Numbered from the stretch's first letter, positions 25,106 through 61,069 are shown. The stretch is DNA of 64,000 nt from Patescibacteria group bacterium (GCA_018818405.1 JAHIRY010000047.1:2053-66052); one strand, 5' to 3'. Made by a program: numbers and translations. The notes: generated from the sequence alone by a model not told the origin.

Positions 25106-25134
25106 TTGACAAAATTGTGTTTTTTTGTTATAAT
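25106..25134 (+). promoter_or_regulatory. Consensus sigma-70-type promoter, TTGACA-17-TATAAT, for the downstream ncRNA
   Basis: ttgacaaaattgtgtttttttgttataat. Confidence 0.6.
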
Positions 25135-25138
25135 ATAG

Positions 25139-25580
25139 GTGTTCTTGGAGAACGGCCTGCCGGTGAGACCCAGCAATAAGCCGGACGATGAATCAATCGA
25201 TGAAGTTGGTAGAGGGGTGTCACCCTCGGAAATCCAGCGGAGGTTGGTTCGCGGAACTCTGAACTCGTCAATGCGGCCGGGATGACACCCGGCTGCAATA
25301 CCGCGCTTTTAAGAGCGCGCCCCGGTAGCGTCGGAAAGAATATCATAGGAAGCGAGCAGGAGATTGGGCAACACCCGCATCTTCCCACTCCCTGTTTTCG
25401 CTGAGGCGGAGAGCGATACTGGACGCGGGCCAGTGCTCTTCATTAGCGACCTATGAGAAATCATTCCGACATTGCAATAGTCCTGGGATGGACTTCGGGG
25501 GAGACTAAGGGGCAATCGTTCCCCAAGAACAGCTTCATCAGGGCGTTGATTTCACGATCGCGCCCTGAATTTTTTTTTGT
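25139..25580 (+). ncRNA. Structured ncRNA of about 440 nt, class unassigned, with paired 5' and 3' ends and an intrinsic terminator
   Basis: GC-rich island in an AT-rich genome. The 5' guucuuggagaacg pairs with the 3' cguuccccaagaac. There are many internal hairpins, such as gccgggaugacacccggc and cgcgcuuuuaagagcgcg. The terminator is cagggcg..cgcgccctg plus T9. Only short spurious ORFs are present on either strand. Confidence 0.55.
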
Positions 25581-25770
25581 AAGGACGGTTTTTTTTATTG
25601 TGATCAAAAGTTATTGAATTCAAACCATATTAGTTTCCAATCAAAGTATATTCAGAGTTAGTCATTCCCGGATCCCCGGGTTTCCAGGTTCCCGGGTCGC
25701 CGGGTTTCCGCTTCCCTGGTCCCCTGATTCAGAGCCGGCCTACTTAACAAATCAGTAAAAATGTTTTATA

Positions 25771-26922
25771 TTGAATCCAATATTTATGAATAAAAAACCA
25801 GGAAAAATAAAAGTCGCTGTCGCAGTTTCCGGCGGAGTTGATTCTTCGGTTGCTTTGGCGTTGTTGAAAAAACAAGGTTTTGAGGTTTTCGGCGTGTTCA
25901 TGCATTTCTGGAGCGAGAATATCAGCGGAAAAGTTCGCGACAATATTTGTTGTTCTCTCGAAGCGCAGGAAGACGCGAGAAAAGTTTGCCGAAAGCTGGG
26001 CGTTCCATTTTATACCATGAATATGACATTGCCGTTCAAGAAAAAGGTGGTTGATGATTTTCTCGATCAATATGAAAATTGCCGGACGCCGAATCCTTGC
26101 GTTCTGTGCAACAAGCATATAAAGTTCGGCGAGTTTATCAAAAGAGCAACGGAGATGGGAGCGGATTTTGTGGCGACCGGACATTATGCGCGAAATCCTA
26201 AATCAGAAATTCTAAATTCTAAACAAATTCAAAATCCTAAATCCCAAAATACAAATATTATCAATAAGCTTTTAATTTCAAAGGATATAGCGAAAGACCA
26301 AACTTATTTTTTGCATCAATTGAATAAAAAACAATTATCAAAAATTATTTTTCCGATTGGGAAATATACAAAGGCGGAAGTTCGCGCGCTGGCAAAGAAA
26401 TTCAATCTGCCGACCGCGTCGAAAAAAGAATCGCAGGAAGTTTGTTTTGTTCCGGGCGGAAATTTGCAGAAATTTTTTGAGAAATATTTAAAATTGAAAT
26501 CAGGAGATATTGTCGACATTGAAACGAAAAAAGTTTTGGGAAAACACAATGGTTTGGCGCGATACACCATAGGACAGAGAAAAGGAATCGGACTTCACGG
26601 CGGACCGTGGTATGTCGTCGGATTGGATAAAGAAGAAAATATTTTGCGAGTTTCTAGAAATGAGAGCGATTTTCTCAGCAATGAATTGCAAGTCAAAAAT
26701 GTGAATTGGATTTCCGGCGTTTGTCCGGAATTTCCGTTGAAAGCGAAATGCAAAGTCCGTTATTGTTCAGAAGATGCGAATTCAATAATCGAAACAACGA
26801 ATGAGAAAAATATTTTTCGCGTAAAATTCAAAAAACCGGTTCGCGCCGCAACACCCGGACAGTATTGTGTTTTTTGGAAAGGCAAGGAATGTTTGGGCGG
26901 CGGCGTAATTCAACAAAGTTGA
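25771..26922 (+). CDS. mnmA: tRNA 2-thiouridine(34) synthase MnmA with a low-complexity in-frame insertion
   Basis: The PP-loop AVAVSGGVDSSV, the catalytic Cys residues and the conserved C-terminal domain. The extra segment NPKSEILNSKQIQNPKSQNTN is encoded by aatcctaaat-type repeat DNA. Confidence 0.85.
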   Translation: MNPIFMNKKPGKIKVAVAVSGGVDSSVALALLKKQGFEVFGVFMHFWSENISGKVRDNICCSLEAQEDARKVCRKLGVPFYTMNMTLPFKKKVVDDFLDQYENCRTPNPCVLCNKHIKFGEFIKRATEMGADFVATGHYARNPKSEILNSKQIQNPKSQNTNIINKLLISKDIAKDQTYFLHQLNKKQLSKIIFPIGKYTKAEVRALAKKFNLPTASKKESQEVCFVPGGNLQKFFEKYLKLKSGDIVDIETKKVLGKHNGLARYTIGQRKGIGLHGGPWYVVGLDKEENILRVSRNESDFLSNELQVKNVNWISGVCPEFPLKAKCKVRYCSEDANSIIETTNEKNIFRVKFKKPVRAATPGQYCVFWKGKECLGGGVIQQS

Positions 26923-49198: not shown

Positions 49199-50184
49199 TT
49201 TTTCAGGGAGCAATTAGCAAGGAGCAGGGAGCACTACTCATGTATCATATAACATGTAGCATGTAACAAAAATCGATATTGAAATCCTGAATTTCGTAGA
49301 GGCGCAAAATCTTGCGTCTGCGATTCAATTAAAATGAAATTCTAACAAAAAACCGTCCGGAGAATTATCCGGACGGGGAGCGAGCGATGCGGTTTAGCCA
49401 AGGCTGACCGCATTTTTTGCGATATTGCGGGCAACTGAATCGAGTACGAGACTAACGACTAAATGTTTGCAAGTTTCAGCGAGTTGACGCAAAAAAGCGG
49501 CTCTTTCATGATTGCGCGAATCTCTCAGTACTTCGAGCGCGTCAATCAAATTGGCGCATTGCCTCGGATAATCGACAGAACTTTGAGAAATTTCATTGAG
49601 ACGCAAAATCGTTTCTTCCACCAGATTTTGCGCTTCCTGATATTTGTCGGCCATAATGTCCCTCCGTTGTTCGTCCCTTCTAATAATAAATTTAACATCA
49701 GCCGGCATATTTTGTCAATTTATAATTTGCTTGTGATTTAGTATTTCGAATTTATAATTTGTAATTTATGATTTCGAGCTTGTTTAGAATTTCGAATTTA
49801 GGATTTAGTATTTGGAATTTGTCCCGCAGCGTGCGGGATCCCGCTCACAGCGGCGATTTAGTATTTCGGATTTAGGATTTCACCAGTGTTCCCTGATTAG
49901 TGCTCCTTGTTCCTTGCCGTAGGTTGCTGCCACCGCAGCGTGCGGGGTTCCGCTCACAGCGGGACGAATTCGCCACCGCAGCGTGCGGGGTCCCGTCTCA
50001 CAGCGGGACGAATCATCACTAATTCTCCACCGCAGCGTGCGGGATCCCGCCCGCGGCGGGACGAATTATAATTTCGCAATTTAAGATTCATATTTTGTTA
50101 CATGCGAAGTGCTCCCTGCTCCCTGCTGATTGCTCCCTGCCAAGTGCTCCTTGCTCCCTGTTCAAAAAATCTGGGGATAAACGT
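49199..50184. repeat. Mosaic intergenic repeat region R1 upstream of the mraZ promoter
   Basis: The modules, in both orientations, are a GC hairpin unit (ccaccgcagcgtgcgggg.cccgctcacagcggg, tandem x4 at 49930..50068 plus one at 49822), agggagcac/gtgctccctg units (49203-49240, 49884-49915, 50108-50160), a catgtagcatgtaaca unit (49240-49270) and AT-rich (a)aatcctaaat/tttaggatt units (49737-49880). Confidence 0.75.
49394..49654 (-). CDS. Hypothetical 86-aa helical protein embedded in repeat region R1
   Basis: SD GGAGG lies 6 nt upstream of the ATG at 49652-49654. A dedicated minus-strand terminator (ccgtccggagaattatccggacgg plus U-run) follows the stop. The track ORF extends to 49708 without an SD. 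Confidence 0.5.
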   Translation of the reverse strand: MADKYQEAQNLVEETILRLNEISQSSVDYPRQCANLIDALEVLRDSRNHERAAFLRQLAETCKHLVVSLVLDSVARNIAKNAVSLG

Positions 50185-50185
50185 G

Positions 50186-50214
50186 TTGACGCGTGTCACT
50201 CGGTGGAATATAAT
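50186..50214 (+). promoter_or_regulatory. mraZ (Pmra) promoter, TTGACG-17-TATAAT
   Basis: ttgacgcgtgtcactcggtggaatataat. Confidence 0.6.
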
Positions 50215-50222
50215 GGAGCTAG

Positions 50223-50248
50223 AGTGAACGAAAGTGGGGAGAAGTGGA
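50223..50248 (+). promoter_or_regulatory. Candidate MraZ operator: three direct repeats AGTG(A/G)(A/G) at 10-bp spacing
   Basis: agtgaacgaa agtggggaga agtggagc immediately downstream of the -10, as in known MraZ-box arrangements. Confidence 0.5.
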
Positions 50249-50298
50249 GCATTCCTCAAATTATTTTTTGTTATCTTTTTTTCATTCATTTAGCAAAT

Positions 50299-50730
50299 AT
50301 GTTTATTGGCGAATACAATTATTCTGTTGATGAAAAAGGCAGAATTGCTATTCCCGCGAAATTTAGGGCAGCACTATCAAAAGGCGCGGTTGTGACGCGC
50401 GGACTTGATAACTGTCTTTTTGTTTATACCAAGACCGAATGGACATTGCTGGCTGAGAAATTATCAGCCCTTCCCATAGGCCAGGCGAATTCCCGCGCTT
50501 TTTCCAGATTGATGCTGGCCGGCGCAATGGATGTGAAGCCTGATAAACAGGGGAGAGTGATGCTGCCGGATTATCTCAGAAAATTCGCTGATGTGAAAAA
50601 GAAAGTTGTTATTGCCGGACTTTATAACAGACTTGAAATTTGGGATGAAGAACGATGGGATTCATACAAGAAAGAAACCGAAAAAGCGAGCAATGATATT
50701 GCGGAAAAATTAGGCGATCTCGGTGTTTAG
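50299..50730 (+). CDS. mraZ: Transcriptional regulator MraZ
   Basis: Two DXXXR-containing MraZ repeats (SVDEKGRIAIPAKFR and KPDKQGRVMLPDYLR). The start is the ATG at 50299. The upstream track-ORF extension translates repeat DNA. Confidence 0.9.
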   Translation: MFIGEYNYSVDEKGRIAIPAKFRAALSKGAVVTRGLDNCLFVYTKTEWTLLAEKLSALPIGQANSRAFSRLMLAGAMDVKPDKQGRVMLPDYLRKFADVKKKVVIAGLYNRLEIWDEERWDSYKKETEKASNDIAEKLGDLGV

Positions 50731-50747
50731 AAAAATGAATATTTTAT

Positions 50748-51677
50748 ATGATAATGCACAAACCCGTATTAGTTGATGAAGTCATGAAATTCCTCGATCC
50801 GAAGAAGAATGAGAATTTTGTGGATTGCACGGTCGGAGGCGGAGGACACGCGAAAAAAATATTGGAAATGACCAAGCCTGATGGAAAATTGCTCGGACTG
50901 GACTGGGATCCGCAGGCGATCGAACGGGCGAAGACAAGATTGAGTTCATTCAAAAAAAGAGCGATTCTGGTAAATTCTTCTTACACCGCAATAAAAGAAA
51001 TTGCGGAAAGAGAAAAATTTCAGCCGATTGCCGGAGTATTGCTGGATCTGGGTTTGTCTTCCGATCAATTGCAGGCGAGCGGACGCGGATTTTCTTTTCA
51101 GACGAATGAGATATTGGATATGCGATTTTCTCCGGATGACACTCAGACTCAAGCGAAAGATATTCTGAATGATTGGCCGGAAGAAAAAATACGGGAAATT
51201 CTCTGGAAAAACGGAGATGAAAAATTCGCCAGAAGAATCGCAGCGGGAATAATCGAATATCGAAAAACAAAAAAAATAGAAACAACCTTGCAATTGGTTG
51301 ATATCATAATTCACGCGGTGCCGAGACAAAAGACGAGGATTCATCCGGCAACGCAAACATTTCAGGCGCTTCGCATCGCGGTAAACAATGAATTCAATAA
51401 TATCCGAATAGGATTGCGGGACATTCTGGATATTCTGGAGCCGGGCGGGAAGATTTCGGTAATTACATTTCATTCATTGGAAGATCGAATCGTAAAACAT
51501 TTGTTCAAGCGGGAAAGCGTTGATTGCGTGTGCGAGCCGGAAATGCCGGTGTGCCAGTGCGGACACAAAGCGCAAATAAAATTGATTACAAAAAAACCGA
51601 TATTGCCCGGCGCGGAAGAAATTTCCGAAAATTTCCGCAGCCGTTCGGCAAAATTAAGAGTAGCGGAAAAAATATAA
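50748..51677 (+). CDS. rsmH: 16S rRNA m4C1402 methyltransferase RsmH (MraW)
   Basis: HKPVLVDEV start, SAM-binding DCTVGGGGHA, 309 aa. Confidence 0.9.
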   Translation: MIMHKPVLVDEVMKFLDPKKNENFVDCTVGGGGHAKKILEMTKPDGKLLGLDWDPQAIERAKTRLSSFKKRAILVNSSYTAIKEIAEREKFQPIAGVLLDLGLSSDQLQASGRGFSFQTNEILDMRFSPDDTQTQAKDILNDWPEEKIREILWKNGDEKFARRIAAGIIEYRKTKKIETTLQLVDIIIHAVPRQKTRIHPATQTFQALRIAVNNEFNNIRIGLRDILDILEPGGKISVITFHSLEDRIVKHLFKRESVDCVCEPEMPVCQCGHKAQIKLITKKPILPGAEEISENFRSRSAKLRVAEKI

Positions 51678-51702
51678 AAAACAAAAACAAAACAAAAAAA
51701 TT

Positions 51703-52050
51703 ATGACATGTTATTCACCATGCAACGGGAAAATTTTCAATCATAATGAAAATTATACAATGACAAAGGCGACAAAAAAAATAAGCATGATTATTCTCGG
51801 CGCTTTGATTGTCGGTTCGATCGGCGCTTATCTTTTTGAAGTCAATAGAATCGCGGCTCAGGGTTTTCAAATCCGCGAATTGGAAAATCAAATTTATTCA
51901 ATGCAAGAGGAAAATGAAAAGCTGAGCATTCAAATGGTGGAAATGCAATCAATGTCAGCAGTGGAAAGCAGAATAGAAAATATGGCAATGATTCCGGTCG
52001 ATAATATCGCTTATTATGATTCAGCCAGTCCGGTTGTCGCGAGAAAATAA
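51703..52050 (+). CDS. ftsL: FtsL-like cell division protein
   Basis: Small bitopic protein with a TM helix (ISMIILGALIVGSIGAYLF) and a coiled coil, after rsmH. The start may be the internal ATG near 51760. Confidence 0.5.
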   Translation: MTCYSPCNGKIFNHNENYTMTKATKKISMIILGALIVGSIGAYLFEVNRIAAQGFQIRELENQIYSMQEENEKLSIQMVEMQSMSAVESRIENMAMIPVDNIAYYDSASPVVARK

Positions 52051-52158
52051 AATTTAAAATTTTGAAAACGCTCTGGTTGAGCGTTTTTTTTTGTTGGAAA
52101 CAATGTAGGTTGGACAAACCGTTTGCGGAAAAACAAAGAACGGATTTTTCACTAGTGT

Positions 52159-53070
52159 TTAGATGTTTCTACGTTTTTTATCTGCGATTTCCTGTTTTAA
52201 TTCTGTAATATCGATATGAGCGATTTCTTTGATAATGGCGCGTAATTCTGATGAAAGATTTTTTTTGTCCGATTCACCGCCGGAAAATTTTTTGGTTGTC
52301 AGCTTACCTTCGTCTTCTGTGACTCCGATCATGTGCGGTTGTTTGAACCACGGAATTTGCAGCGCAGGTTTTTTATATCGCTGATTGAAGAAATGTACGC
52401 CAAATATTTCAGATTGAGGATACGCCTGCGCAAATACCGCTGCGGTCGCCCGCAAAGTTTCTCCTGTCATCAAAAGTTCATCAATGATAAGTACTTTTTT
52501 TTGCAGCTTTTTGCCGTAGCGAGAACGGATTTTCTCTATCAAATCCGGATGTTTTGCTACAATAGCCAGCCAAATTTTGGGAATGTTTTTTTTTGACAGC
52601 CAAATATCATCATCAATCGCCGTTCCTTCCGCAAAATTATTTTTTTTCCAAAACCATTCATCATCTTCGGTATACGATTTTTTTTCAATTTCGTCGAGTG
52701 ATTTATACATTGCTTCACCTTCTTCGGACATTTCTTCAATGATTGTTTTTTTTCCGCGAACCTCCATTGTTCCCATGTCAATATATTTTATCTTTGGATC
52801 GCTTTGTTTGTTGTTCCAGCGTTCTTGAAACAGCCAGGACAGCGGTCTCGCGCTCTTGTCTAGGAAGATTAATTCTTCAATGCCGCTGTTTTTTATTTGT
52901 TCAATAAGTTGGTCGATTCTTTCCACCAATTCCAGCCGCCATTCGGGATTCATCAATCTTGAATACGCAAACGGCTCAGCTGATTTCATGGTGGATTTTG
53001 ATTCTTCATCTTTTTTCGGTTCATTGTTTTGGGTGCTGATTCCTGCAAATTTTTCACTTGGAATTGTCAT
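52159..53070 (-). CDS. Phosphoribosyltransferase-domain protein with a roughly 150-aa unknown N-terminal region
   Basis: PRPP-binding motif VLIIDELLMTGETLRA. Minus strand, interrupting the dcw cluster. Confidence 0.5.
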   Translation of the reverse strand: MTIPSEKFAGISTQNNEPKKDEESKSTMKSAEPFAYSRLMNPEWRLELVERIDQLIEQIKNSGIEELIFLDKSARPLSWLFQERWNNKQSDPKIKYIDMGTMEVRGKKTIIEEMSEEGEAMYKSLDEIEKKSYTEDDEWFWKKNNFAEGTAIDDDIWLSKKNIPKIWLAIVAKHPDLIEKIRSRYGKKLQKKVLIIDELLMTGETLRATAAVFAQAYPQSEIFGVHFFNQRYKKPALQIPWFKQPHMIGVTEDEGKLTTKKFSGGESDKKNLSSELRAIIKEIAHIDITELKQEIADKKRRNI

Positions 53071-53297
53071 ATTTTTTTAGAAGATTACTGGCGTAAGATT
53101 TTGCGCGCCTATCTTGAATTGTTTAACGGAGGTCTTCGCAAAAGCATTGTCCGGATTCATCTTTTTTCCATCTTTGCCAAGCGGGCGACTGTCCCTGTAA
53201 TGTATTATAGCCTTTATTTTAACTGGAAACAAAACCTTGAAAAATTTGGCTAAATATATTATAATGTTGGACAAGGAATTAATCAATTTGATGCATT

Positions 53298-54407
53298 ATG
53301 TATAAAGTGTTGAACAAGAAGGGAAAAGCCCGCAGAGGAACATTGCAGACCGCTCACGGCCTTGTGGAAACGCCTTGCTTTATGCCGATCGCGACCAAGG
53401 GAAATGTAAAAGCCATTTCAGTTGAAGATCTGAAAAAGCTTGATCCGGCGGTGATACTGGGAAACACATATCATCTCATGCTCCGGCCCGGAGAAGAGGA
53501 AATCGCTCAGCTCGGCGGAATGCATCGGCTGATGAATTGGCGCAAACCGATTTTGACCGATAGCGGCGGATTTCAGGTTTTTTCTCTGGCAAAGATCAGA
53601 AAGCTTAATGAAGAAGGCGTTATTTTCAATTCCCATATCAATGGAAAAGAATTTTTTCTTTCGCCTGAAAACGCGATTAACATTCAATTTGCCATCGGTT
53701 CGGACATTATGATGGTTCTCGATGAATGCGTGAAATTGCCGGCTGAACGGAAATATTTGCTGGAATCAGTGGAAATGACGACTCGCTGGGCGAAGCGTTG
53801 CAAGGAAAAATTTGAGAGCGAATTGGAAAAGAAAAATATTATTGGAAATAAACCGCTTTTGTTCGGAATTGTTCAGGGCGGATTGGAAAAAGATTTGAGA
53901 ATGAAAAGCGCGAATGAATTGGAGGAAATAGGTTTTGACGGTTATGCGATCGGCGGACTTTCAGTGGGCGAGAGTGAACTGGAAATGTATGAAGTGTTGG
54001 ATTATGTTGCGCCGGAATTGCCGGAAGATAAACCGCGATATTTGATGGGCGTCGGTTATCCTCATCAAATTGTGGAAGCTGTGAAAAGAGGAATCGATAT
54101 GTTTGATTGCGTTATCCCGACGAGAGAAGCCAGACACGGCCGTTTGTATTTCATGAAGAGGGAAGAATGGAAAATGGAAGATAGTGAAAAATTTTATCAA
54201 ACGATAAATATCACTTCCGAAAAGTTCAAATTAGATCAAACGCCGATCAACGAAAAAAGTTCATTTGATGAATTGAAAAATTATTCCAGAGCTTATTTGC
54301 GCAATTTGTTTGTCAATAACGATCCGGCGGCCATGCGGCTGGCGACATTGAACAATCTGGAATTTTATTTGAATTTGATGAAAGAAATCAGAACACAATT
54401 GAGTTGA
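53298..54407 (+). CDS. tgt: Queuine tRNA-ribosyltransferase
   Basis: GTLQTAHGLVETPCFMPIATKG N-terminus, DSGGFQ and LMGVGYP motifs, 369 aa. Confidence 0.9.
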   Translation: MYKVLNKKGKARRGTLQTAHGLVETPCFMPIATKGNVKAISVEDLKKLDPAVILGNTYHLMLRPGEEEIAQLGGMHRLMNWRKPILTDSGGFQVFSLAKIRKLNEEGVIFNSHINGKEFFLSPENAINIQFAIGSDIMMVLDECVKLPAERKYLLESVEMTTRWAKRCKEKFESELEKKNIIGNKPLLFGIVQGGLEKDLRMKSANELEEIGFDGYAIGGLSVGESELEMYEVLDYVAPELPEDKPRYLMGVGYPHQIVEAVKRGIDMFDCVIPTREARHGRLYFMKREEWKMEDSEKFYQTINITSEKFKLDQTPINEKSSFDELKNYSRAYLRNLFVNNDPAAMRLATLNNLEFYLNLMKEIRTQLS

Positions 54408-54434
54408 AATATCGGAAATTTATTATTTAAAGAA

Positions 54435-55181
54435 ATGTTTATGTTTTATTATGTGTTTTTCGCGGCGCTGTTCATCTTTATGATCAGCTTGCGCCAGGTG
54501 AATCAGTTTGAACGCGGCTTGTTGTTTACAATGGGAAGATTCAGCCGGATAAAAGAACCGGGCTGGCGGGTTGTTCTGCCGATTTTCCAGAGCATGACAA
54601 AAGTTGATATGCGCACCAAAGCGGTGGATGTTCCCGATCAAAAGGCGATCACAAAAGACAATATCGCAGTGACGGTGAACGCGGTTATTTATTATAAAGT
54701 CGCAGACTCGATGAAAGCGATTTTGGAAGTGGAAAATTTCTTTTATGCTGTTTCTCAGCTCGCGCAAACAACCATGAGAAATGTGGTGGGCGAGGTGGAA
54801 TTGGATGATTTACTGGGACAGCGCGACAATATTTCCGAACGAATCAGAAATATCGTTGACGCGGCCACTGATGATTGGGGAATCCGCGTTGACAATGTGG
54901 AATTGAAAGATGTTTCTTTGCCGCCGGAAATGGAGCGAACGATCGCCAAGCAGGCAGAGGCTGAGCGCGAACGCCGAGCGGTGATTATCAAGGCTGAAGG
55001 CGAGATGATGGCAGCGGAAAATATGGGAAAAGCAGCGGACATTTTGAATCAATCTCCGGGCGCTTTGCATTTGAGAACATTGCAATCCATCAATGATATC
55101 AGCTCTGATCAATCGAATACGGTTGTTTTCGCCGTTCCGCTGGAAGTTTTGCGGGCGATTGAAAGTTTCAAAAAACAATAA
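54435..55181 (+). CDS. SPFH/band-7 (stomatin-prohibitin-like) membrane protein
   Basis: N-terminal TM segment then the SPFH domain (ERGLLFTMGRF...VDMRTKAVDVPDQKAITKDNI). Confidence 0.8.
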   Translation: MFMFYYVFFAALFIFMISLRQVNQFERGLLFTMGRFSRIKEPGWRVVLPIFQSMTKVDMRTKAVDVPDQKAITKDNIAVTVNAVIYYKVADSMKAILEVENFFYAVSQLAQTTMRNVVGEVELDDLLGQRDNISERIRNIVDAATDDWGIRVDNVELKDVSLPPEMERTIAKQAEAERERRAVIIKAEGEMMAAENMGKAADILNQSPGALHLRTLQSINDISSDQSNTVVFAVPLEVLRAIESFKKQ

Positions 55182-55313
55182 TCAAAGAAAAACAAGCGGT
55201 GAAAAACCGCTTGTTTTTTGTTTGCGCGAAAATGTCGAATCTTTATTATTCGAGTGAATTTTGCTATAATCAAAACAATAAAAGCTGATTAAATCAATGA
55301 GTTTTGTTTAATT

Positions 55314-57215
55314 GTGGCGATTTTAATAAAAAAGAAACAATTGGTAAAATATCCGGGCGGCAGTTTTTGCAAGCTGAACAAGCAGGGGACTGCGGATTAT
55401 CGCTTGATCGCGTTGTCTGTTTTTTTTATTTTGTTTTTTGGTTTGATCGTTGTTCGATTATTCAAGGTTCAAGTGTTGGAGCACAATTATTATATTACTC
55501 TCGCGTCGGATCAGCATGAAATTTTTCGCCAGCTTTATCCTGTTCGCGGAAATATTTTTGTGCAAGAAAAAAAAGGAAGCTTGGTCAGCAACAGCAAATA
55601 TTATCCGCTGGCAACAAATAAAAACATGAATTTGCTTTACGCGATTCCGAAAGACATCAAAGATCCGGATGCTGTTTTGGAAGTTTTGAAAGAAGTGTTT
55701 GAAATCGAAGAAAGCGAGGAAGAACCGCCGGGCGAGAATGAAGGAGTGGAAAATGCAGATGTAAATTTGACGCCCGAACAATTGCAACAAAAGAAAGATG
55801 ATGAATTGATTGAGAAATGGCGCGTTCAATTGGCAAAAGAAAATGATCCGTATGAACCGTTGAAACATCTTGCGTCCGATGAAGAAATGGAAAAAATAAA
55901 TTCATACAATTTGGAAGGAATTACCTCGATAAAGGAAATTTCCCGATATTATCCGGAAAAAAACAATGGCAGTCAGCTCCTCGGATTTGTGGGAAAACAA
56001 GCGGAAAATAATATGCCCGTGGGATATTATGGAATTGAAGGCTGTTTCAACAAAACATTGTCAGGCGAAGCCGGATTTTTGCGTTCCGAAATGGATAATT
56101 CCGGACGCTGGATCGCGATCGCGGGCAAGGATTTCAGTAAAGCGAAAAACGGACAGGATTTGGTTTTAACGATTGACAAATCCATTCAATATTTTGTCTG
56201 CGATGAGCTGAACAAAGCGGTGAAAGATCATTTGGCGGAAAACGGTTCGGTCATTATCATGGAGCCGCAAACCGGAAAAATTATTGCTTTGTGCAATTCT
56301 CCTGATTTTGATCCGAATAAATACAATGAAGTTGAGGATATTCAAGTGTTTAATAATTTGGCATTAACAGATACTTACGAACCGGGTTCGGTTTTCAAAG
56401 CGATAACAATGGCAGCTGCGCTTGATTCCGGAAAAATCGATCCGTTCAGCGGATATGAAGACACGGGCGAAGTTGTAATCGGCAAGGATATTATCAAAAA
56501 TTCGGACAGCAAAGCTCATGGCTGGCAGACGATGACGCAAGTTTTGGAAAAATCATTGAATACGGGAACCGTATTTGTCGCCAATAAAATTGGAATTGAT
56601 GAATTCAGGCGTTATGTTAAAGCATTCGGTTTTGGTTCAAAAACAGGTATTGATCTTTGCAGTGAAGGTGAAGGAAATATCGGTTCATTGGAAAGAGGCG
56701 GAGAAATTTATTTGGCCACCGCTTCGTTCGGACAGGGACTGACAACCACAGCGCTCCAATTGTTAAAAGCGTATGGCGCCATTGCCAATGAAGGGAAATT
56801 GATGGAACCGTATGTGATCGATTCGATTCTCGATGAAAATGGAGATGTGGTAAAACAGAATTCGCCGAAAATAGTTGGACAGGTAATTTCTCCGAATTCC
56901 GCGCGTCTGCTAGGAAGTATGCTGGTATCAGTGATAAAAAACGGACATGGCGCAAAAGCGGGCGTTCCGGGCTATATGGTAGCGGCCAAGACCGGAACCG
57001 CGCAAATGGCTGATCCGGTGAAAGGCGGTTACAGCGAGAAAACAGCGCACACGCTCGTCGGATTCGCGCCGTACAATAATCCTCGTTTTGTCATGGTTGT
57101 AAAGATAACCGCGCCGAAAAATGATCAATTCGCCGAAACTTCAGCTGCGCCGCTTTTCGGCAAAATCGCGAAATTCATGTTGGATTATTATGATGTGCCG
57201 CCGGATTTGCAATGA
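55314..57215 (+). CDS. ftsI: Penicillin-binding protein 2/3 (FtsI-type transpeptidase)
   Basis: N-terminal TM segment, a PBP dimerisation domain, and transpeptidase SVFK (SxxK), SDS (SxN) and KTGT motifs. Confidence 0.85.
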   Translation: MAILIKKKQLVKYPGGSFCKLNKQGTADYRLIALSVFFILFFGLIVVRLFKVQVLEHNYYITLASDQHEIFRQLYPVRGNIFVQEKKGSLVSNSKYYPLATNKNMNLLYAIPKDIKDPDAVLEVLKEVFEIEESEEEPPGENEGVENADVNLTPEQLQQKKDDELIEKWRVQLAKENDPYEPLKHLASDEEMEKINSYNLEGITSIKEISRYYPEKNNGSQLLGFVGKQAENNMPVGYYGIEGCFNKTLSGEAGFLRSEMDNSGRWIAIAGKDFSKAKNGQDLVLTIDKSIQYFVCDELNKAVKDHLAENGSVIIMEPQTGKIIALCNSPDFDPNKYNEVEDIQVFNNLALTDTYEPGSVFKAITMAAALDSGKIDPFSGYEDTGEVVIGKDIIKNSDSKAHGWQTMTQVLEKSLNTGTVFVANKIGIDEFRRYVKAFGFGSKTGIDLCSEGEGNIGSLERGGEIYLATASFGQGLTTTALQLLKAYGAIANEGKLMEPYVIDSILDENGDVVKQNSPKIVGQVISPNSARLLGSMLVSVIKNGHGAKAGVPGYMVAAKTGTAQMADPVKGGYSEKTAHTLVGFAPYNNPRFVMVVKITAPKNDQFAETSAAPLFGKIAKFMLDYYDVPPDLQ

Positions 57216-57545
57216 AGATTTGGCATGTAGCACACTTCCCCTAGATGCGACTCGGGACAGGCTTTCAGGCTCAGTGTGACAATTAATAAATCCTAAATCC
57301 TAAATACGAAATACTAAAAAAAATTACAAATTCGAAATTTCAAATACCAAGTAAATTATAATTCGTCTGCCCCGCACGCTGCGGCGGTGGCAATTTAAAT
57401 CAAGTAAATCAGTAGCAGATCAGTATATCACATGGAATGTCTCATGTGATAAAAGTTCAAATGGCTAATAAGCTAAGAAGCTACAAGCTAATAAGTCAAT
57501 CTTGTAAAACCGTGCAAAACTGATATACTGAATTTCATTAAACCA
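57216..57545. repeat. Mosaic intergenic repeat region R2 between ftsI and murF
   Basis: Contains the catgtagcac unit, aatcctaaatcctaaatacgaaatactaaa, accaagtaaattataattcgtctgccccgcacgctgcggcggtgg (the inverted GC unit), gctaagaagctacaagctaataag, a palindrome atcacatg..catgtgat and a murF promoter candidate. Confidence 0.7.
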
Positions 57546-58847
57546 TTGAAAAAATTACATAATATGAAAAAAATATTGGAAAGAATATTGGCGTCATGCG
57601 CCGAATCGATTTTGAAAAAATATCATCCGCGAGTGATCGGCATTACCGGCAGTATTGGCAAGACTTCGGCCAAGGAGGCGATTTATGCTGTGTTGAACAC
57701 CAAATTTAATGTTCGGGAAAATAAAAAAAATTATAACAATGAAATCGGCGTTCCGCTGACCGTTATCGACGCTGAGTCAGGCGGGAATTCAATTCTTGGT
57801 TGGATGAAAGTTTTTCGAAAAGCGATCAAATTGATTTACGGAGAAAATAAAAATTATCCGGAAATATTGATCATGGAAATGGGAGCGGATAAGCCCGGAG
57901 ATATTGAATATTTGGTGAACATTGCGCCTTGCAATATCGGAGTGGTGACGACTATCGGGCCGACGCATTTGCAAGCTTTCGGAACAGTGGAAAAAGTTGC
58001 CAGAGAAAAACAAAAAATTGTGAGCCATCTGAACAAAGACGGCGTCGCGATTTTGAATTATGATGATTTGTTGGTTCGGAAAATGGCGGAAAAGACAAAA
58101 GCGAAAGTTGTTTTTTTCGGTTATTCGGAAAAAGCGGATATTCATTCGGTTGATCTGGCGAATCATGGCGTGACAATGGATTTGCAAGGAATAAAATTTA
58201 AAATTTCCGACGGCCGAAGTTCTGTGCCGGTTTTTCTGCCCGGAGTGGTCGGCATTCATCAGATTAATTCCGCGCTCATTGCCGCGGCTGTGGGAAATTC
58301 CCTCGGAATGAATTTGATCGATGTTTCCATCGGATTGAAAAATTATCGGGCGCCAAAAGGAAGAATGAATTTGATCGAAGGAATTGAAAACAGTTTGATG
58401 ATTGATGATACTTACAATTCATCGCCAAAAGCGGCGGCAGCCGCGTTGGAAACCTTGGCAAAGTTGAATATTTCCGATGCTCGGAGAAAAGTGGCGATTT
58501 TGGGCGATATGCTGGAACTGGGAACTTTTTCAGAACAAGCGCATTATGAATTGGGAAAATCTGTGGCGGATTTGAAAATAGATTTTTTGATTTGCGCGGG
58601 AAATATGAGGCACAAAATAGTTCAGGGCGCAATGGAAAACGGTTTTTCCGGCGACAATATTGTTGAATTCCGCGATTCGGTCGAGGCTGGACAAACCGTG
58701 CGAAATTTGATAAAGTCCAATGAATTGATTTTGGTAAAAGGCTCGCAAGGCGCAAGAATGGAACTCATTGTAAAAGCGTTGATGCGCAATCCGGAAGACG
58801 CGAAAAAATTGTTGGTGAGGCAGACGGGAGAGTGGATTAAGAGTTAG
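57546..58847 (+). CDS. murF: UDP-MurNAc-tripeptide--D-Ala-D-Ala ligase MurF
   Basis: Mur ligase P-loop GITGSIGKTS plus the middle and C-terminal Mur ligase domains, 433 aa. Confidence 0.85.
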   Translation: MKKLHNMKKILERILASCAESILKKYHPRVIGITGSIGKTSAKEAIYAVLNTKFNVRENKKNYNNEIGVPLTVIDAESGGNSILGWMKVFRKAIKLIYGENKNYPEILIMEMGADKPGDIEYLVNIAPCNIGVVTTIGPTHLQAFGTVEKVAREKQKIVSHLNKDGVAILNYDDLLVRKMAEKTKAKVVFFGYSEKADIHSVDLANHGVTMDLQGIKFKISDGRSSVPVFLPGVVGIHQINSALIAAAVGNSLGMNLIDVSIGLKNYRAPKGRMNLIEGIENSLMIDDTYNSSPKAAAAALETLAKLNISDARRKVAILGDMLELGTFSEQAHYELGKSVADLKIDFLICAGNMRHKIVQGAMENGFSGDNIVEFRDSVEAGQTVRNLIKSNELILVKGSQGARMELIVKALMRNPEDAKKLLVRQTGEWIKS

Positions 58848-59069
58848 TTGCCACCACCGCAGCGTGCGGGGCAGGCGAATTATCTTTTGTGATTTGTGAT
58901 TTCGAGCTTGTCCCGCAGCGTGCGGGATCCCGCTCACAGCGGTGATTTAGGCTTTAGTATTTAGAATTTAGGATTTTAATTGTGCTACATGTTATATGTT
59001 ATATGAGCAGTGTTCCATGATTAGTGTTCCCTGATTAGTGCTCCCTGACAAGTGCTCCCTGAAAATCAC
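58848..59069. repeat. Mosaic intergenic repeat region R3 between murF and tRNA-Glu
   Basis: Two GC hairpin units (58852-58875 and 58907-58940), the AT-rich tttaggattt units, gtgctacatgttatatg and gtgctccctg x3 units. Confidence 0.7.
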
Positions 59070-59144
59070 GGCCTCATCGTCTAGTGGTTAGGACGCATGG
59101 TTCTCATCCATGTAACCGGGGTTCGATTCCCCGTGGGGCTACCA
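59070..59144 (+). tRNA. tRNA-Glu (anticodon CUC)
   Basis: A manual cloverleaf fits. Acceptor GGCCUCA/UGGGGCU (two G-U pairs), D-arm GUCU-AGUGGUUA-GGAC, anticodon loop UUCUCAU, T-arm CGGGG-UUCGAUU-CCCCG, and an encoded CCA. It is followed by a hairpin plus T-run terminator at 59148..59176. Confidence 0.8.
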
Positions 59145-59272
59145 AAAAATCATCATCGCGAGATGGTGATTTTTTGTTATTTAGGAAATTAATTTGAGTT
59201 ATCCACATTTAAATTTGCCGTTCGGTTTTTGTTTGGTATAATGAAGTTAGAACCGAACAGAAAGCGAACGTT

Positions 59273-59311
59273 AGTGAGTAAGAGATTGAGAGAATAAGAG
59301 ATTTAGAGATA
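59273..59311. repeat. Left arm of the inverted repeat flanking the four-helix-bundle gene, a degenerate (aagagatt)n array
   Basis: gagtaagagattgagagaataagagatttagagataaag. Its complement, (aatctctt)n, occurs at 59783..59825. Coordinates are approximate. Confidence 0.6.
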
Positions 59312-59429
59312 AAGTCAGAAATTCAATTTCGTAGATTCTAAGTCTCTCAGTTTCTGTCATTTTATCTAACTATTCTAAAGAATGAAGCATTCATATAAAT
59401 AATTAAGAATTTGGCAAAAAGGATATGAG

Positions 59430-59783
59430 TTGTTGATGAAAATTTATGAGGCAACTCGAAATTTTCCACAGGAAGAACGATTTGGATTGATATCAGATAT
59501 TAGACGATCGGCGAATTCCATTATCGCAAATATTGCAGAAAGTCATGGACGTTATTACTATCTCGATAAAATTCGTGTTTTATACATTGCTCGAGGTGAA
59601 ATAGAAGAAGTTAGTAGCCACCTCGCGGTTGCAACCGGTTTGCAGTATCTATCCATAGCGGAATCAACGGATTTTTTACAAGAATATGAAGGTTTACAAC
59701 TCGGATTAAATGATTTCATTGCGAGTTTATTACATCAATCAACTGCAATAAAAAAAAGTTCTAAAAAAAATAATTCCCAATAA
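59430..59783 (+). CDS. Four-helix-bundle protein (23S rRNA intervening-sequence / S23 / bAvd family)
   Basis: Family signature ...ATRNFPQEERFGLISDIRRSANSIIANIAESHGR...YIARGEIEEV. 117 aa, coordinates taken from the ORF track. Confidence 0.75.
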   Translation: MLMKIYEATRNFPQEERFGLISDIRRSANSIIANIAESHGRYYYLDKIRVLYIARGEIEEVSSHLAVATGLQYLSIAESTDFLQEYEGLQLGLNDFIASLLHQSTAIKKSSKKNNSQ

Positions 59784-59825
59784 CTCAATCTTCCAATCTC
59801 TCAATCTCTTAATCTCTTAATTATT
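59783..59825. repeat. Right arm of the inverted repeat flanking the four-helix-bundle gene
   Basis: ctcaatcttccaatctctcaatctcttaatctcttaatt, the reverse complement of the (aagagatt)n left arm. Confidence 0.6.
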
Positions 59826-59840
59826 CTAATATAATCACTT

Positions 59841-60446
59841 ATGACTAAACTAACCAAACGCCAAAGCGAAATACTCCGATTCGTCACCAACTTCGTAAAG
59901 GACTACGACTACGCTCCCAGTCAACGCGAGATTGCTGAGAATATGGGATTATCTTCACCGGCCACGGTTCACCAGCACTTGCAGCTTTTGAAAAGTAAAG
60001 GATTTCTCAAATGCGATCCTGATGTGCCGCGAGGAATCGAACTTACCAGCAAAGTTTTAAAACTGGGAAAAACAATTGAATTGCCGCTTGTCGGATTGAT
60101 TACAGCGGGCGAACCGATAGAAGCGATCGAAGAGAAGGAAACAATGGCTGTGCCGGCTGATCTGGTTTCCGATGAAAGTTCTTATGTCTTGAAAGTAAAA
60201 GGAGAATCAATGATCGAAGAAGGAATTTTGAGCGGAGACTATGTGATTGTTGAACGCAATCATTATCCGAAAAACGGAGATGTGGTAGTCGCTCTGTTGA
60301 ATAACGCTTATGCCACTTTGAAAAAGTTTTATCGCGAGACAAACAGAATCAGACTTCAGCCGGCAAATGCGACAATGAAACCGATTTTTTGCAAAGATGT
60401 GGCCATCCGCGGAGTGGTGAGAGCGATTATTCGCAAGTTCGCATAA
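59841..60446 (+). CDS. lexA: LexA repressor
   Basis: N-terminal winged HTH (LTKRQSEILRFV...SQREIAENMGLSSPATVHQHL), cleavage-site region, S24 peptidase Ser (GESM) and Lys (TLKKF), 201 aa. Confidence 0.85.
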   Translation: MTKLTKRQSEILRFVTNFVKDYDYAPSQREIAENMGLSSPATVHQHLQLLKSKGFLKCDPDVPRGIELTSKVLKLGKTIELPLVGLITAGEPIEAIEEKETMAVPADLVSDESSYVLKVKGESMIEEGILSGDYVIVERNHYPKNGDVVVALLNNAYATLKKFYRETNRIRLQPANATMKPIFCKDVAIRGVVRAIIRKFA

Positions 60447-60960
60447 TAAAATAAAAAAAGTAATTCATAAAAAGGCGCGGGAAAGAATTGTTTGTGACAA
60501 AAGCATGGACAAATAATCCTTTCCTCAGCCAAAAAAATTAATCTTATGTCAAAAAGAAAAGTTCGATCAATAGTAAGAAAATTTACCGGATTTTGGGAGG
60601 ATTTGACGATTAATGTGTGAGTTGTTGCAAGGAACAATCAGCAAGGAGCAGGGAACACTAATCATGTAGCATGTAACAATTCGCAGGGAGCAAGGAGCAC
60701 TAATCAGGGAACCCCGCCCTTCGCGAAGAGCGGGGGAACACAATTTAATTCCTAAATCCGAAATTCCAAACACCAAGTAAATTATAATTCGCCTGCCCCG
60801 CACGCTGCGGTGGCAGCAACCTACGGCAAGGAACAAGGAACACTAATAGGGGATCACAATATCAAATAGTTCGAAAGGTTTATAAATAGCTAAGAAGCTA
60901 TTTATCCCGCCCGCGGCGGGAATGAGCTACAAGCTAAAAAGCTAATTCGTAACAATTATA
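60447..60960. repeat. Mosaic intergenic repeat region R4 between lexA and the dinB-coupled ORF
   Basis: 60625-60690 is about 85 percent identical to 49203-49270. 60768-60815 is the same segment as 57336-57385. 60797-60847 is the reverse complement of 49897-49945. Also present are cccgcccgcggcggg and gagctacaagctaaaaagcta units. Confidence 0.75.
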
Positions 60961-61069
60961 TGAAAACAAACAACAAAGGAAAATTTATTATCACTTATTA
61001 TCCGCAGAATCAAAAATCAATCGGCATGTTCGTATCAATCAAAAAGTCATAACAATCAATTCAATCAAT

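Follow-up and report, generated by a model that had tools for sequence, protein, structure and literature searches.

Four regions in a 64,000-nt stretch of a Patescibacteria group bacterium (GCA_018818405.1, JAHIRY010000047.1:2053-66052; here called the window) are repeat islands of one interspersed mosaic family, composed mostly of imperfect tandem arrays of 7-nt units between which short GC-rich palindromes are set. These regions, as first delimited, are R1 (49199-50184), R2 (57216-57545), R3 (58848-59069), and R4 (60447-60960). The window is part of a 125.8-kb metagenome contig (ENA ERZ27247128 k141_731505), has a GC content of 40.6%, and encodes a MurF whose best named relatives belong to Candidatus Falkowbacteria (Patescibacteria), the nearest being just 65 to 67% identical. 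The host appears to be a Falkowbacteria-like member of the Candidate Phyla Radiation (CPR). The explanation that we favor for the islands as a whole, with moderate confidence, is that they are selfish, slippage-driven repeats whose inverted arms would form double-stranded RNA (dsRNA) stems.

Self-BLASTN of the 64 kb retrieved 26 significant non-self matches, 17 of which join R1 to R4, with E values among these regions as low as 3e-20. This bears out the original prediction that the four regions share the same modules, and the three pairs of segments that it had singled out are recovered as well: 49207-49254 is 87.5% identical to 60631-60678, 57328-57384 is 93% identical to 60754-60810, and 49886-49947 matches the reverse complement of 60796-60857 at 94% over 62 nt. 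The core of the GC-rich palindrome, named H1 (CCGCAGCGTGCGGG), has eight exact copies in the window, at 49824, 49933, 49976, 50030, 58857, and 58913 on the plus strand and at 57371 and 60797 on the minus strand. When up to two mismatches are allowed, 11 matches are found, against 0.17 expected from shuffled sequences, and every copy in the window is extragenic. An independent Logan assembly (SRR6514274; L040) is 100% identical to the window over 59114-60720, and an orphan open reading frame (ORF) inside R1 is also present in the NCBI metagenome-assembled genome (MAG), which rules out an assembly artifact.

The shared segments are modules, as had been proposed, but Tandem Repeats Finder (TRF) and direct reading resolve most of them into imperfect tandem arrays of 7-nt units, the GC-rich module being the exception. 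At least five unit types occur in the window, as follows: module A (CAGGGAG/CAAGGAG), module B (CATGTAG/CATATAA), module C (GATTTAG/AATTTCG), module D (AAGCTAA), and module E, the one array type with 8-nt units (TAAGAGAT). Short remnants of ACGAAT-type units separate the GC doublets described below. A strict autocorrelation scan of periods 5 to 11 found arrays at period 7 (six segments) and period 8 (two segments) only, and none in shuffled sequence. Period-7 arrays cover 44 nt per 10 kb of the window, 43 nt in three relatives, 186 nt in contigs of metagenome Ga0180007, 114 nt in loci of the Paceibacterota MAG JALNYN01, and 7 nt in GC-rich control loci. The modules had been described as differing in order and orientation between the regions; once orientation is normalized, the order is mostly A, B, C, H1, A, and later D. 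Because this order is largely conserved, the islands look like diverged copies of composite blocks rather than free permutations. A separate array of approximately 8-nt (T)TCCCGGG-type units lies just upstream of mnmA (25665-25724), and its unit family is seen nowhere else in the window.

H1 (CCGCA-GCG-TGCGG) resembles a repetitive extragenic palindromic (REP) sequence and sits between array units. Its companion H2, CCCGC(T/C)-loop-(A/G)GCGGG, has a loop of its own, and its stem is in essence that of H1 reversed and complemented; the two make up an inverted doublet with two alternative folds, a pair of hairpins or a single long one, whose energies differ by no more than 1 to 3 kcal/mol. The description of the GC module as a double hairpin thus holds for H1-H2 but not for every copy, since H1 also occurs alone, at 57353-57393, 58848-58880, and 60779-60820, where its stem is longer and its flank, GGCAG(G/A)CGAATTAT, is conserved. 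Likewise, of the four tandem copies reported upstream of mraZ, only three are in tandem (49930-50064), and the fourth (49821-49853) lies 109 nt upstream within an array. This copy, doublet 1, and doublet 5 (58910-58942) are placed exactly between two complete C units, with the array register continuing across them. The H2 stem is retained over at least 12 different loops, and a per-sequence tally of stems shows covariation of the innermost pair (C-G in 10 variants and T-A in 7). The constancy of H1 is partly an ascertainment effect of searching with an exact pattern.

The family extends beyond the window and does not reduce to a single local duplication, in keeping with its first description as an interspersed mosaic. 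Modules of the family recur about 6 kb past the window end on the same contig (L039) and are also found on three unrelated contigs of Ga0180007 (L077, L089, and L092). The Ga0180007 contigs hold islands of 300 to 600 nt made of A, B, C, and D arrays together with ACGAAT units, H1, H1-H2, and two further hairpins, flanked by genes unrelated to those of the window. JALNYN01 carries one H1-H2 doublet on each of four contigs, within an element of about 150 nt with GTCGCCGGAC terminal inverted repeats. Besides these, about 20 low-GC metagenome contigs carry the doublet, and at least 10 other CPR-like genomes of low GC content have it. A scan of metagenomes for H1 found about 28 copies in low-GC contigs, two of them in frame in ORFs; the settings include heptamer arrays, 9-mer arrays, the interior of GTCATTTCGA…TCGAAATGAC elements, and enclosure by covarying outer stems. 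Most genome-contig matches (34 of 38) and the GC-rich metagenome matches were discarded as chance or as a single actinobacterial gene, and a phage origin of H1-H2 was rejected, as no copy occurs in IMG/VR. With respect to the features of miniature transposable elements bounded by inverted repeats (MITEs), R1 has 44-nt inverted ends, and no target-site duplication is definable for R1 to R4. No description of such a family in CPR bacteria was found in the literature searched, as had been supposed, although the coverage was incomplete and this is no proof of novelty.

Two side observations concern the wider setting of the palindromes. H1-H2 with its flanking element lies in frame in a truB-like ORF (L012:1400-1560, JALNYN010000033.1) and in a cobO-like and another ORF (L058/L047), where it reads …GPRTLRWQ… or …GHRSVRGPA… and recalls Rickettsia palindromic elements (RPE). 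A MITE-like family, GTCATTTCGAGC…GCTCGAAATGAC, occurs in relatives and CPR-like contigs (L041:4045-4145 and 5500-5790; L071, L076, and L091) and sometimes encloses H1-H2.

The arrays grow and shrink by whole units through slippage. Between the paralogous blocks of R1 and R3, the difference amounts to exactly one unit of 7 nt, on the downstream side of the doublet. Within mnmA, a C-type array of AAATCCT units (26193-26256, plus strand), 81% complementary to 49750-49813, is translated in frame and lengthens a loop by 14 amino acids (42 nt, six units) when compared with solved MnmA structures, as seen from the alignment gap against PDB 9hln. Loci of relatives (L041, L043, and L045) show how the sites vary. 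In L041, about 11 nt separate two micro-ORFs situated downstream of lexA, whereas the R4 island of about 330 nt stands between their homologues in the window; the ftsI-murF spacer measures 348 nt in the window, 134 nt in L041, 195 nt in L043, and 45 nt in L045. The intergenic sites ahead of mraZ and of tRNA-Glu hold arrays in L041 too; the one ahead of mraZ shares A/B-like units with the window, and the other sites differ in unit sequence. Because R4 intervenes in the 11-nt spacer of L041 and because spacers and arrays differ between relatives, the islands are lineage-specific insertions or expansions and not conserved regulatory sequence.

Arrays of this kind also form the arms of S23p/IVP cassettes. 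One such cassette occupies 59273-59832 (plus strand) in the lexA leader and consists of an 8-mer array of TAAGAGAT units (59273-59315), an ORF (59436-59783) that matches PF05635 with a Pfam E value of 3.9e-25, and an inverted 8-mer array (59778-59832). Its arms, of 37 nt, are 78 to 88% complementary and are paired in both the minimum free energy and the centroid folds. The window contains no rRNA, and this cassette is therefore not inserted in an rRNA helix. A second IVP ORF, annotated as PF05635, is found about 3.2 kb past the window end (L039:17343-17699), between the gene for the large subunit of a NiFe-hydrogenase and hypA, and is flanked by inverted CATGTAG/CATATAA arrays (L039:17280-17840), whose unit type is that of module B in R1, R3, and R4. 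R1 to R4 themselves contain no PF05635 ORF.

Inverted 7/8-mer arrays bracket 16 of 19 PF05635 ORFs, namely, all 7 from CPR bacteria and 9 of 12 from cyanobacterial and Gemmatirosa plasmids. In the seven CPR cassettes, from at least five genomes, the inverted 7- or 8-mer arrays are 30 to 37 nt long and 365 to 495 nt apart, and each cassette has its own unit. A tblastn search of a plasmid collection found IVP homologues almost only in cyanobacteria, the 9 bracketed ORFs among the 12 fetched including that of Gemmatirosa (Gemmatimonadota). Of 131 non-IVP ORFs taken as a control from the window and from loci of three relatives, only about 5 have comparable inverted repeats on their flanks: murF, the R1 orphan ORF, rsmH of L045, a PDDEXK_3 gene of L043, and one low-complexity case. 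At murF, the inverted repeats are H1 units, since the H1 unit of R2 is 94% complementary to 58848-58883 and the two copies bracket the gene; as this is not conserved in relatives, it is probably incidental. The PDDEXK_3 gene (PF13366; L043:18240-18638) and rsmH (L045:3641-4570) lie between inverted heptamer arrays of CTACGAA and TTACGGA units, so the bracket is not exclusive to S23p ORFs.

Orthologous cassettes of two Nostoc plasmids have ORFs that are about 98% identical and arms that differ by 21-nt and 7-nt indels, with complementary unit changes from CAGGAGT to CAGAAGT and from ACTCCTG to ACTTCTG. At the site upstream of lexA, the IVP of L041 is only 35% identical to that of the window, whereas LexA is 81% identical, which suggests turnover of the cassette. 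The S23p or "four helix bundle" genes of the cyanobacterial plasmids (L106, L108-L110, and L112-L117) and of Gemmatirosa (L111) are single-gene insertions inside operons, several of them amid cas genes, e.g., cas6-IVP-cas4 and cas10-IVP-cmr3. IVP genes are already known within cas loci (PMC3936711) and in rRNA insertions of CPR bacteria. In the literature searched, whose coverage was incomplete, no paper joined IVP genes outside rRNA to inverted heptamer arrays.

The cassettes share their makeup with the intervening sequences (IVS) of Coxiella burnetii and Leptospira, in which a PF05635 ORF of about 120 amino acids is enclosed by terminal inverted repeats, which pair into a stem of about 28 to 37 bp (PMC4990558). 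The Coxiella 23S rRNA IVS is a 428-nt element, considered selfish, with an S23p ORF and with an arm of tandem GACAGAT heptamers whose number varies between strains, and excision of its heptamer-bearing stem by RNase III is experimental (PMC4990558). The elements differ in that the cassettes here occupy mRNA leaders or intergenic spacers (upstream of lexA; between the hydrogenase gene and hypA) rather than rRNA helix 45, and in that most of the islands (R2 to R4) lack an ORF.

In the explanation that we favor, R1 to R4 would be islands of a genome-wide family of selfish, structure-forming noncoding DNA with two components. The first would be the 7-nt (in some cases 8-nt) arrays, which change by whole units via replication slippage and which, together with their junctions, would be copied between islands irrespective of orientation, with ectopic recombination or gene conversion as the probable route; they would be the same sort of sequence as the inverted arms around S23p/IVP ORFs and in the Coxiella IVS. 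The second would be the REP-like H1, alone or as H1-H2, which is set between array units, is common to many CPR genomes, and can land in frame. Once transcribed, an array would pair with its inverted partner in the same or the next island to give a dsRNA stem of 30 to 45 bp, and R1 RNA is predicted to fold strongly (z = −12.9), its outer stem consisting of the A/B arms. By analogy with Coxiella, such stems may be RNase III substrates, from which cassettes would be excised or by which polycistronic transcripts would be cut into units with paired ends.

Several observations weigh against this explanation. The source genome is covered over only about 70 kb (the window and about 6.4 kb beyond it), and no RNase III gene lies in these 70 kb, which are too little to be informative on this point. 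The mismatches in 16 arm pairs comprise 17 G·U and 18 A·C, without a sense-strand excess of G·U; selection at the RNA level on arm complementarity is therefore not visible, and the complementarity may simply reflect its generation at the DNA level. Most arrays of R2 to R4 have their inverted partner 1.5 to 7 kb away rather than about 400 nt away, and their pairing in vivo is doubtful. The arrays also occur in both orientations relative to transcription, and no enzyme or mechanism that moves H1-H2 or whole blocks was found. Because there is no G·U excess, both orientations occur, and partners are kilobases apart, we favor selfish or neutral repeats whose complementarity is made in the DNA, with RNA processing as a side effect. 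The islands are more likely tolerated parasites than adaptive elements. They are not promoters and not intrinsic terminators; H1 and H2 were rejected as terminators, being devoid of U-tails and not called by terminator prediction, and true terminators are located elsewhere. A gathering-threshold Rfam scan of the window retrieved tRNA-Glu only, and a permissive scan of R1 gave chance-level matches only.

A wider reading would make S23p/IVP genes pan-bacterial mobile IVS-like cassettes with inverted 7/8-mer arrays as arms, and the heptamer arrays of cyanobacteria, Xanthomonas, Bacteroidetes, and CPR bacteria, R1 to R4 among them, would be arms, remnants, or ORF-less derivatives of such cassettes. 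PDDEXK_3 would then be a possible second cargo, and the S23p pentamer, which is homologous to Avd, an accessory protein of retroelements, might aid propagation or RNA processing. We put this forward tentatively, as a possibility that falls well short of probable.

The original prediction likened the islands to the bacterial interspersed mosaic elements (BIMEs) of enterobacteria and suggested an unseen REP-associated tyrosine transposase (RAYT). On that account, the GC palindromes are the active part, mobilized by a RAYT-type Y1 transposase encoded elsewhere, and the heptamer arrays are their preferred landing ground. The GC unit is indeed REP-like: H1 is a short palindrome with eight copies in 64 kb and an identical sequence in many different genomes, its copies fall precisely between array units, and the H1-H2 doublet, inverted and able to fold as two hairpins or one, is like a REPIN or BIME. 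This likeness, however, explains only the minority GC component and leaves without explanation both the arrays, which are the bulk of the islands and are lacking in BIMEs, and the link to IVP ORFs. RAYT genes are normally flanked by their own REPs. Among 106 ORFs within 1.5 kb of about 28 H1-H2 copies, none has an HUH+Y motif and no neighbor gene recurs across genomes (70 kb of the source genome being available), which leaves the transposase suggestion unsupported; the palindrome also lacks the conserved 5' GTAG, its flanks being GCCA/TTGT, and some copies are in frame inside genes. A REP/RAYT reading is possible for the GC component only, and as an account of the islands we consider it unlikely.

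The arrays could instead be a by-product of mutation, heptamer microsatellites that arise independently by slippage in AT-rich spacers, with convergence and one local duplication accounting for the resemblance between islands, which would have neither mobility nor function. Among long simple-sequence repeats, heptamers rank first in many bacteria, and slippage was proposed as their cause (PMC4679880, PMC4692102); the whole-unit indels, the neutral outcome of the G·U test, and the clustering of the islands within 12 kb of the window agree with this. What such an origin does not provide for are segments of 62 nt that are 94% identical in opposite orientations and span array, unique linker, and palindrome, the same multimodule repertoire at unrelated loci on other contigs, and IVP cassettes whose arms match each other but differ between cassettes, in an arrangement specific to IVP ORFs, and we judge it quite unlikely. 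Finally, the arrays might serve as binding sites for a regulator that reads 7 nt or for a nucleoid- or RNA-binding protein, of the cold-shock/S1 type or the S23p pentamer, and so tune the dcw, tRNA-Glu, and lexA genes. Each CspB protein binds a single heptamer, and TAACTGA repeats have been proposed to act posttranscriptionally (PMC4679880); the arrays here lie in leaders and intercistronic spacers of operons and co-occur with S23p genes. A common reader is nevertheless hard to reconcile with at least five unrelated unit sequences in one genome and a different unit for each cassette, with the use of both orientations, with the lack of conservation of array sequence at syntenic sites in relatives, and with the translation of one array inside mnmA. 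This function seems very improbable.

Heptamer arrays (STRR) of cyanobacteria were reportedly described by Mazel in 1990. These arrays and those of Xanthomonas (PMC4692102) and Beggiatoaceae (TAACTGA; PMC4679880) are, like those of the islands, imperfect 7-nt arrays of several unit types, mostly intergenic and transcribed, with variable copy number and occasional in-frame copies in genes. The Xanthomonas GGGAATC arrays include 70 to 75 convergent (inverted) pairs, and neither the Xanthomonas paper, which does not mention S23p, nor the Beggiatoaceae paper makes a link to S23p ORFs (PMC4692102, PMC4679880). The arrays reported here differ from them in belonging to a small CPR genome and in being concatenated into mosaic islands with GC palindromes. 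For the arrays, these heptamer families and the heptamer-bearing arms of S23p intervening sequences are closer analogues than BIMEs. REP, BIME, and REPIN elements of Enterobacteria and Pseudomonas are likewise short, GC-rich, extragenic multicopy palindromes that occur as inverted doublets and as clusters with specific linkers (PMC3116915). The palindromes described here depart from them in their unrelated sequence, in being embedded in heptamer arrays, in the identity of the core in distant genomes, and in the intragenic position of some copies, besides the absence of GTAG and of a RAYT. The SDR of Nostoc punctiforme (Elhai et al., 2008) are said to be tiny hairpin-forming repeats nested in others, tandem heptamers included, with no known transposase; compared by description only, and with unrelated sequences, they provide a lead. 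RPE, according to what is reported of Ogata (2000), are palindromic repeats of 100 to 150 nt that are tolerated in frame in genes, as are the mnmA array and the H1-H2 copies in truB-like and cobO-like ORFs of other CPR contigs, although the sequences are unrelated and most copies here are intergenic. What is found here in a CPR genome belongs to known kinds of element, namely, heptamer arrays, REP-like palindromes, and IVS-type cassettes.

CPR genomes are thought to be streamlined, and yet nested repeats here fill as much as 1 kb between genes essential for cell division. The processes that generate repeats in the large genomes of cyanobacteria and proteobacteria therefore act in this CPR lineage too, and H1-H2, being shared, may serve as a marker of exchange between CPR lineages. 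For bacterial heptamer repeats, whose role has been a question since 1990, the tight association of S23p ORFs with inverted arrays across phyla offers a testable origin and mechanism, namely, IVS-like cassettes and dsRNA stems cut by RNase III, and a handle on the function of the very common, uncharacterized PF05635 family. In practical terms, such islands interrupt assemblies, give rise to spurious ORFs, and place extra peptides in conserved enzymes (mnmA and truB).

The features follow one another in the window in the order tsaB-like, R1, mraZ, rsmH, ftsL-like, a minus-strand phosphoribosyltransferase-like ORF, tgt, a Band_7 gene, ftsI, R2, murF, R3, tRNA-Glu, a promoter, the S23p/IVP ORF, lexA, R4, and dinB. 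R1 opens with a left outer arm (49204-49273, plus strand; TRF period 7) made of an A array (49204-49238) and a B array (49239-49273), which is 89% complementary over 44 nt to 50096-50139. A small AGACGCA-type hairpin (GAGGCGCAAAATCTTGCGTCTG) was read at 49297-49323; it is also present in L089 and resembles hairpins at 15511-15675. R1 had been called intergenic, which applies only in part, for it holds an 86-amino-acid orphan ORF on the minus strand (49394-49654) within a unit (49353-49718) that has a ribosome-binding site, an intrinsic terminator (49353-49376), and a promoter-like site (49689-49718). Its only database match is itself (NCBI KKC32_05130, Patescibacteria group bacterium). We lean against its being a degenerate S23p, given that it has neither homologues nor a Pfam match and that its AlphaFold2 model, with three helices, is of low confidence (pLDDT 68) and has no fold match. 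Farther on, C arrays (49736-49820 and 49854-49881, plus strand; TRF period 7, 12.6 copies) enclose doublet 1, and this segment (49736-49881) is 90% identical to 58908-58969. A reversed A array of TGCTCCT/GTTCCCT units with the linker CCGTAGGTTGCTG (49885-49929, minus strand) comes next, and the match to R4 spans array, linker, and H1. The three tandem doublets (49930-49967, 49973-50011, and 50027-50064, plus strand; TRF period 43) have ACGAAT-type units between them, and the right outer arm (50065-50165, minus strand) comprises a C-like remnant, a B remnant (TTGTTACATGCGA), and a reversed A array of TGCTCCC units, ending 20 nt ahead of the mraZ promoter (50186-50214).

R2 presents, on the minus strand (57278-57393), a reversed C array of AAATCCT units (57278-57349) and then its single H1 with conserved flank, and, on the plus strand (57426-57500), a hairpin TATCACATG...CATGTGATA (57426-57451) and a D array of AAGCTAA units (57464-57500), the latter from TRF and direct reading. 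R3 (58848-59064, plus strand) starts 1 nt past the murF stop codon and ends 5 nt ahead of tRNA-Glu; it has, in this order, the single H1, a C array, doublet 5, a C array, and reversed B (58983-59008) and reversed A (59009-59064) arrays. The repeats of R4 extend over 60622-60948 (plus strand). They begin with A, B, and A arrays (60622-60712), a GC hairpin (60712-60736), and a reversed C array (60738-60775), and continue with the reversed single H1, an A array (60821-60850), and D arrays (60886-60948) that contain an H2-like palindrome, CCCGCCCGCGGCGGG (60904-60920). The D arrays and this palindrome are 90 to 95% similar to L092. The preceding 60447-60621, earlier counted as part of the repeat region, is nonrepeat sequence and carries a conserved micro-ORF of 24 codons (MSKRKVRSIVRKFTGFWEDLTINV; 60546-60620, plus strand) at the left edge of the R4 insertion, which in L041 ends in …WQDLTINV-stop, the consensus being …W(E/Q)DLTINV-stop. 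The second micro-ORF (60960-61052) has 30 codons (MKT(N/K)…(I/L)TY(Y/F)P…), and both are conserved in L041 at about 16312-16450.

Elsewhere in the window, 15456-15680 holds a separate palindrome family with AGACGCAT/ATGCGTCT stems, including a 70-nt palindrome (15606-15675) that is 97% perfect; the hairpin at 49297-49323 in R1 and that in L089 are related to it. A candidate noncoding RNA of about 430 nt and about 55% GC lies at 25107-25585 (plus strand), with a long-range closing stem (fold z = −5.9), a promoter close to consensus (TTGACA-17-TATAAT, at about 25107-25135), and, at 25540-25580, a terminator. No Rfam family matches it even at an E value of ≤1, and an 86-amino-acid minus-strand ORF within it (25128-25388) is probably spurious. 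Coding tandem repeats are found at 10217-12375 (3.8 units of 117 nt) and 17227-17451 (about five proline-rich units of 45 nt). Like the 234-nt duplication between 10217 and 11372, they are repeats at the protein level and have no relation to the intergenic family.

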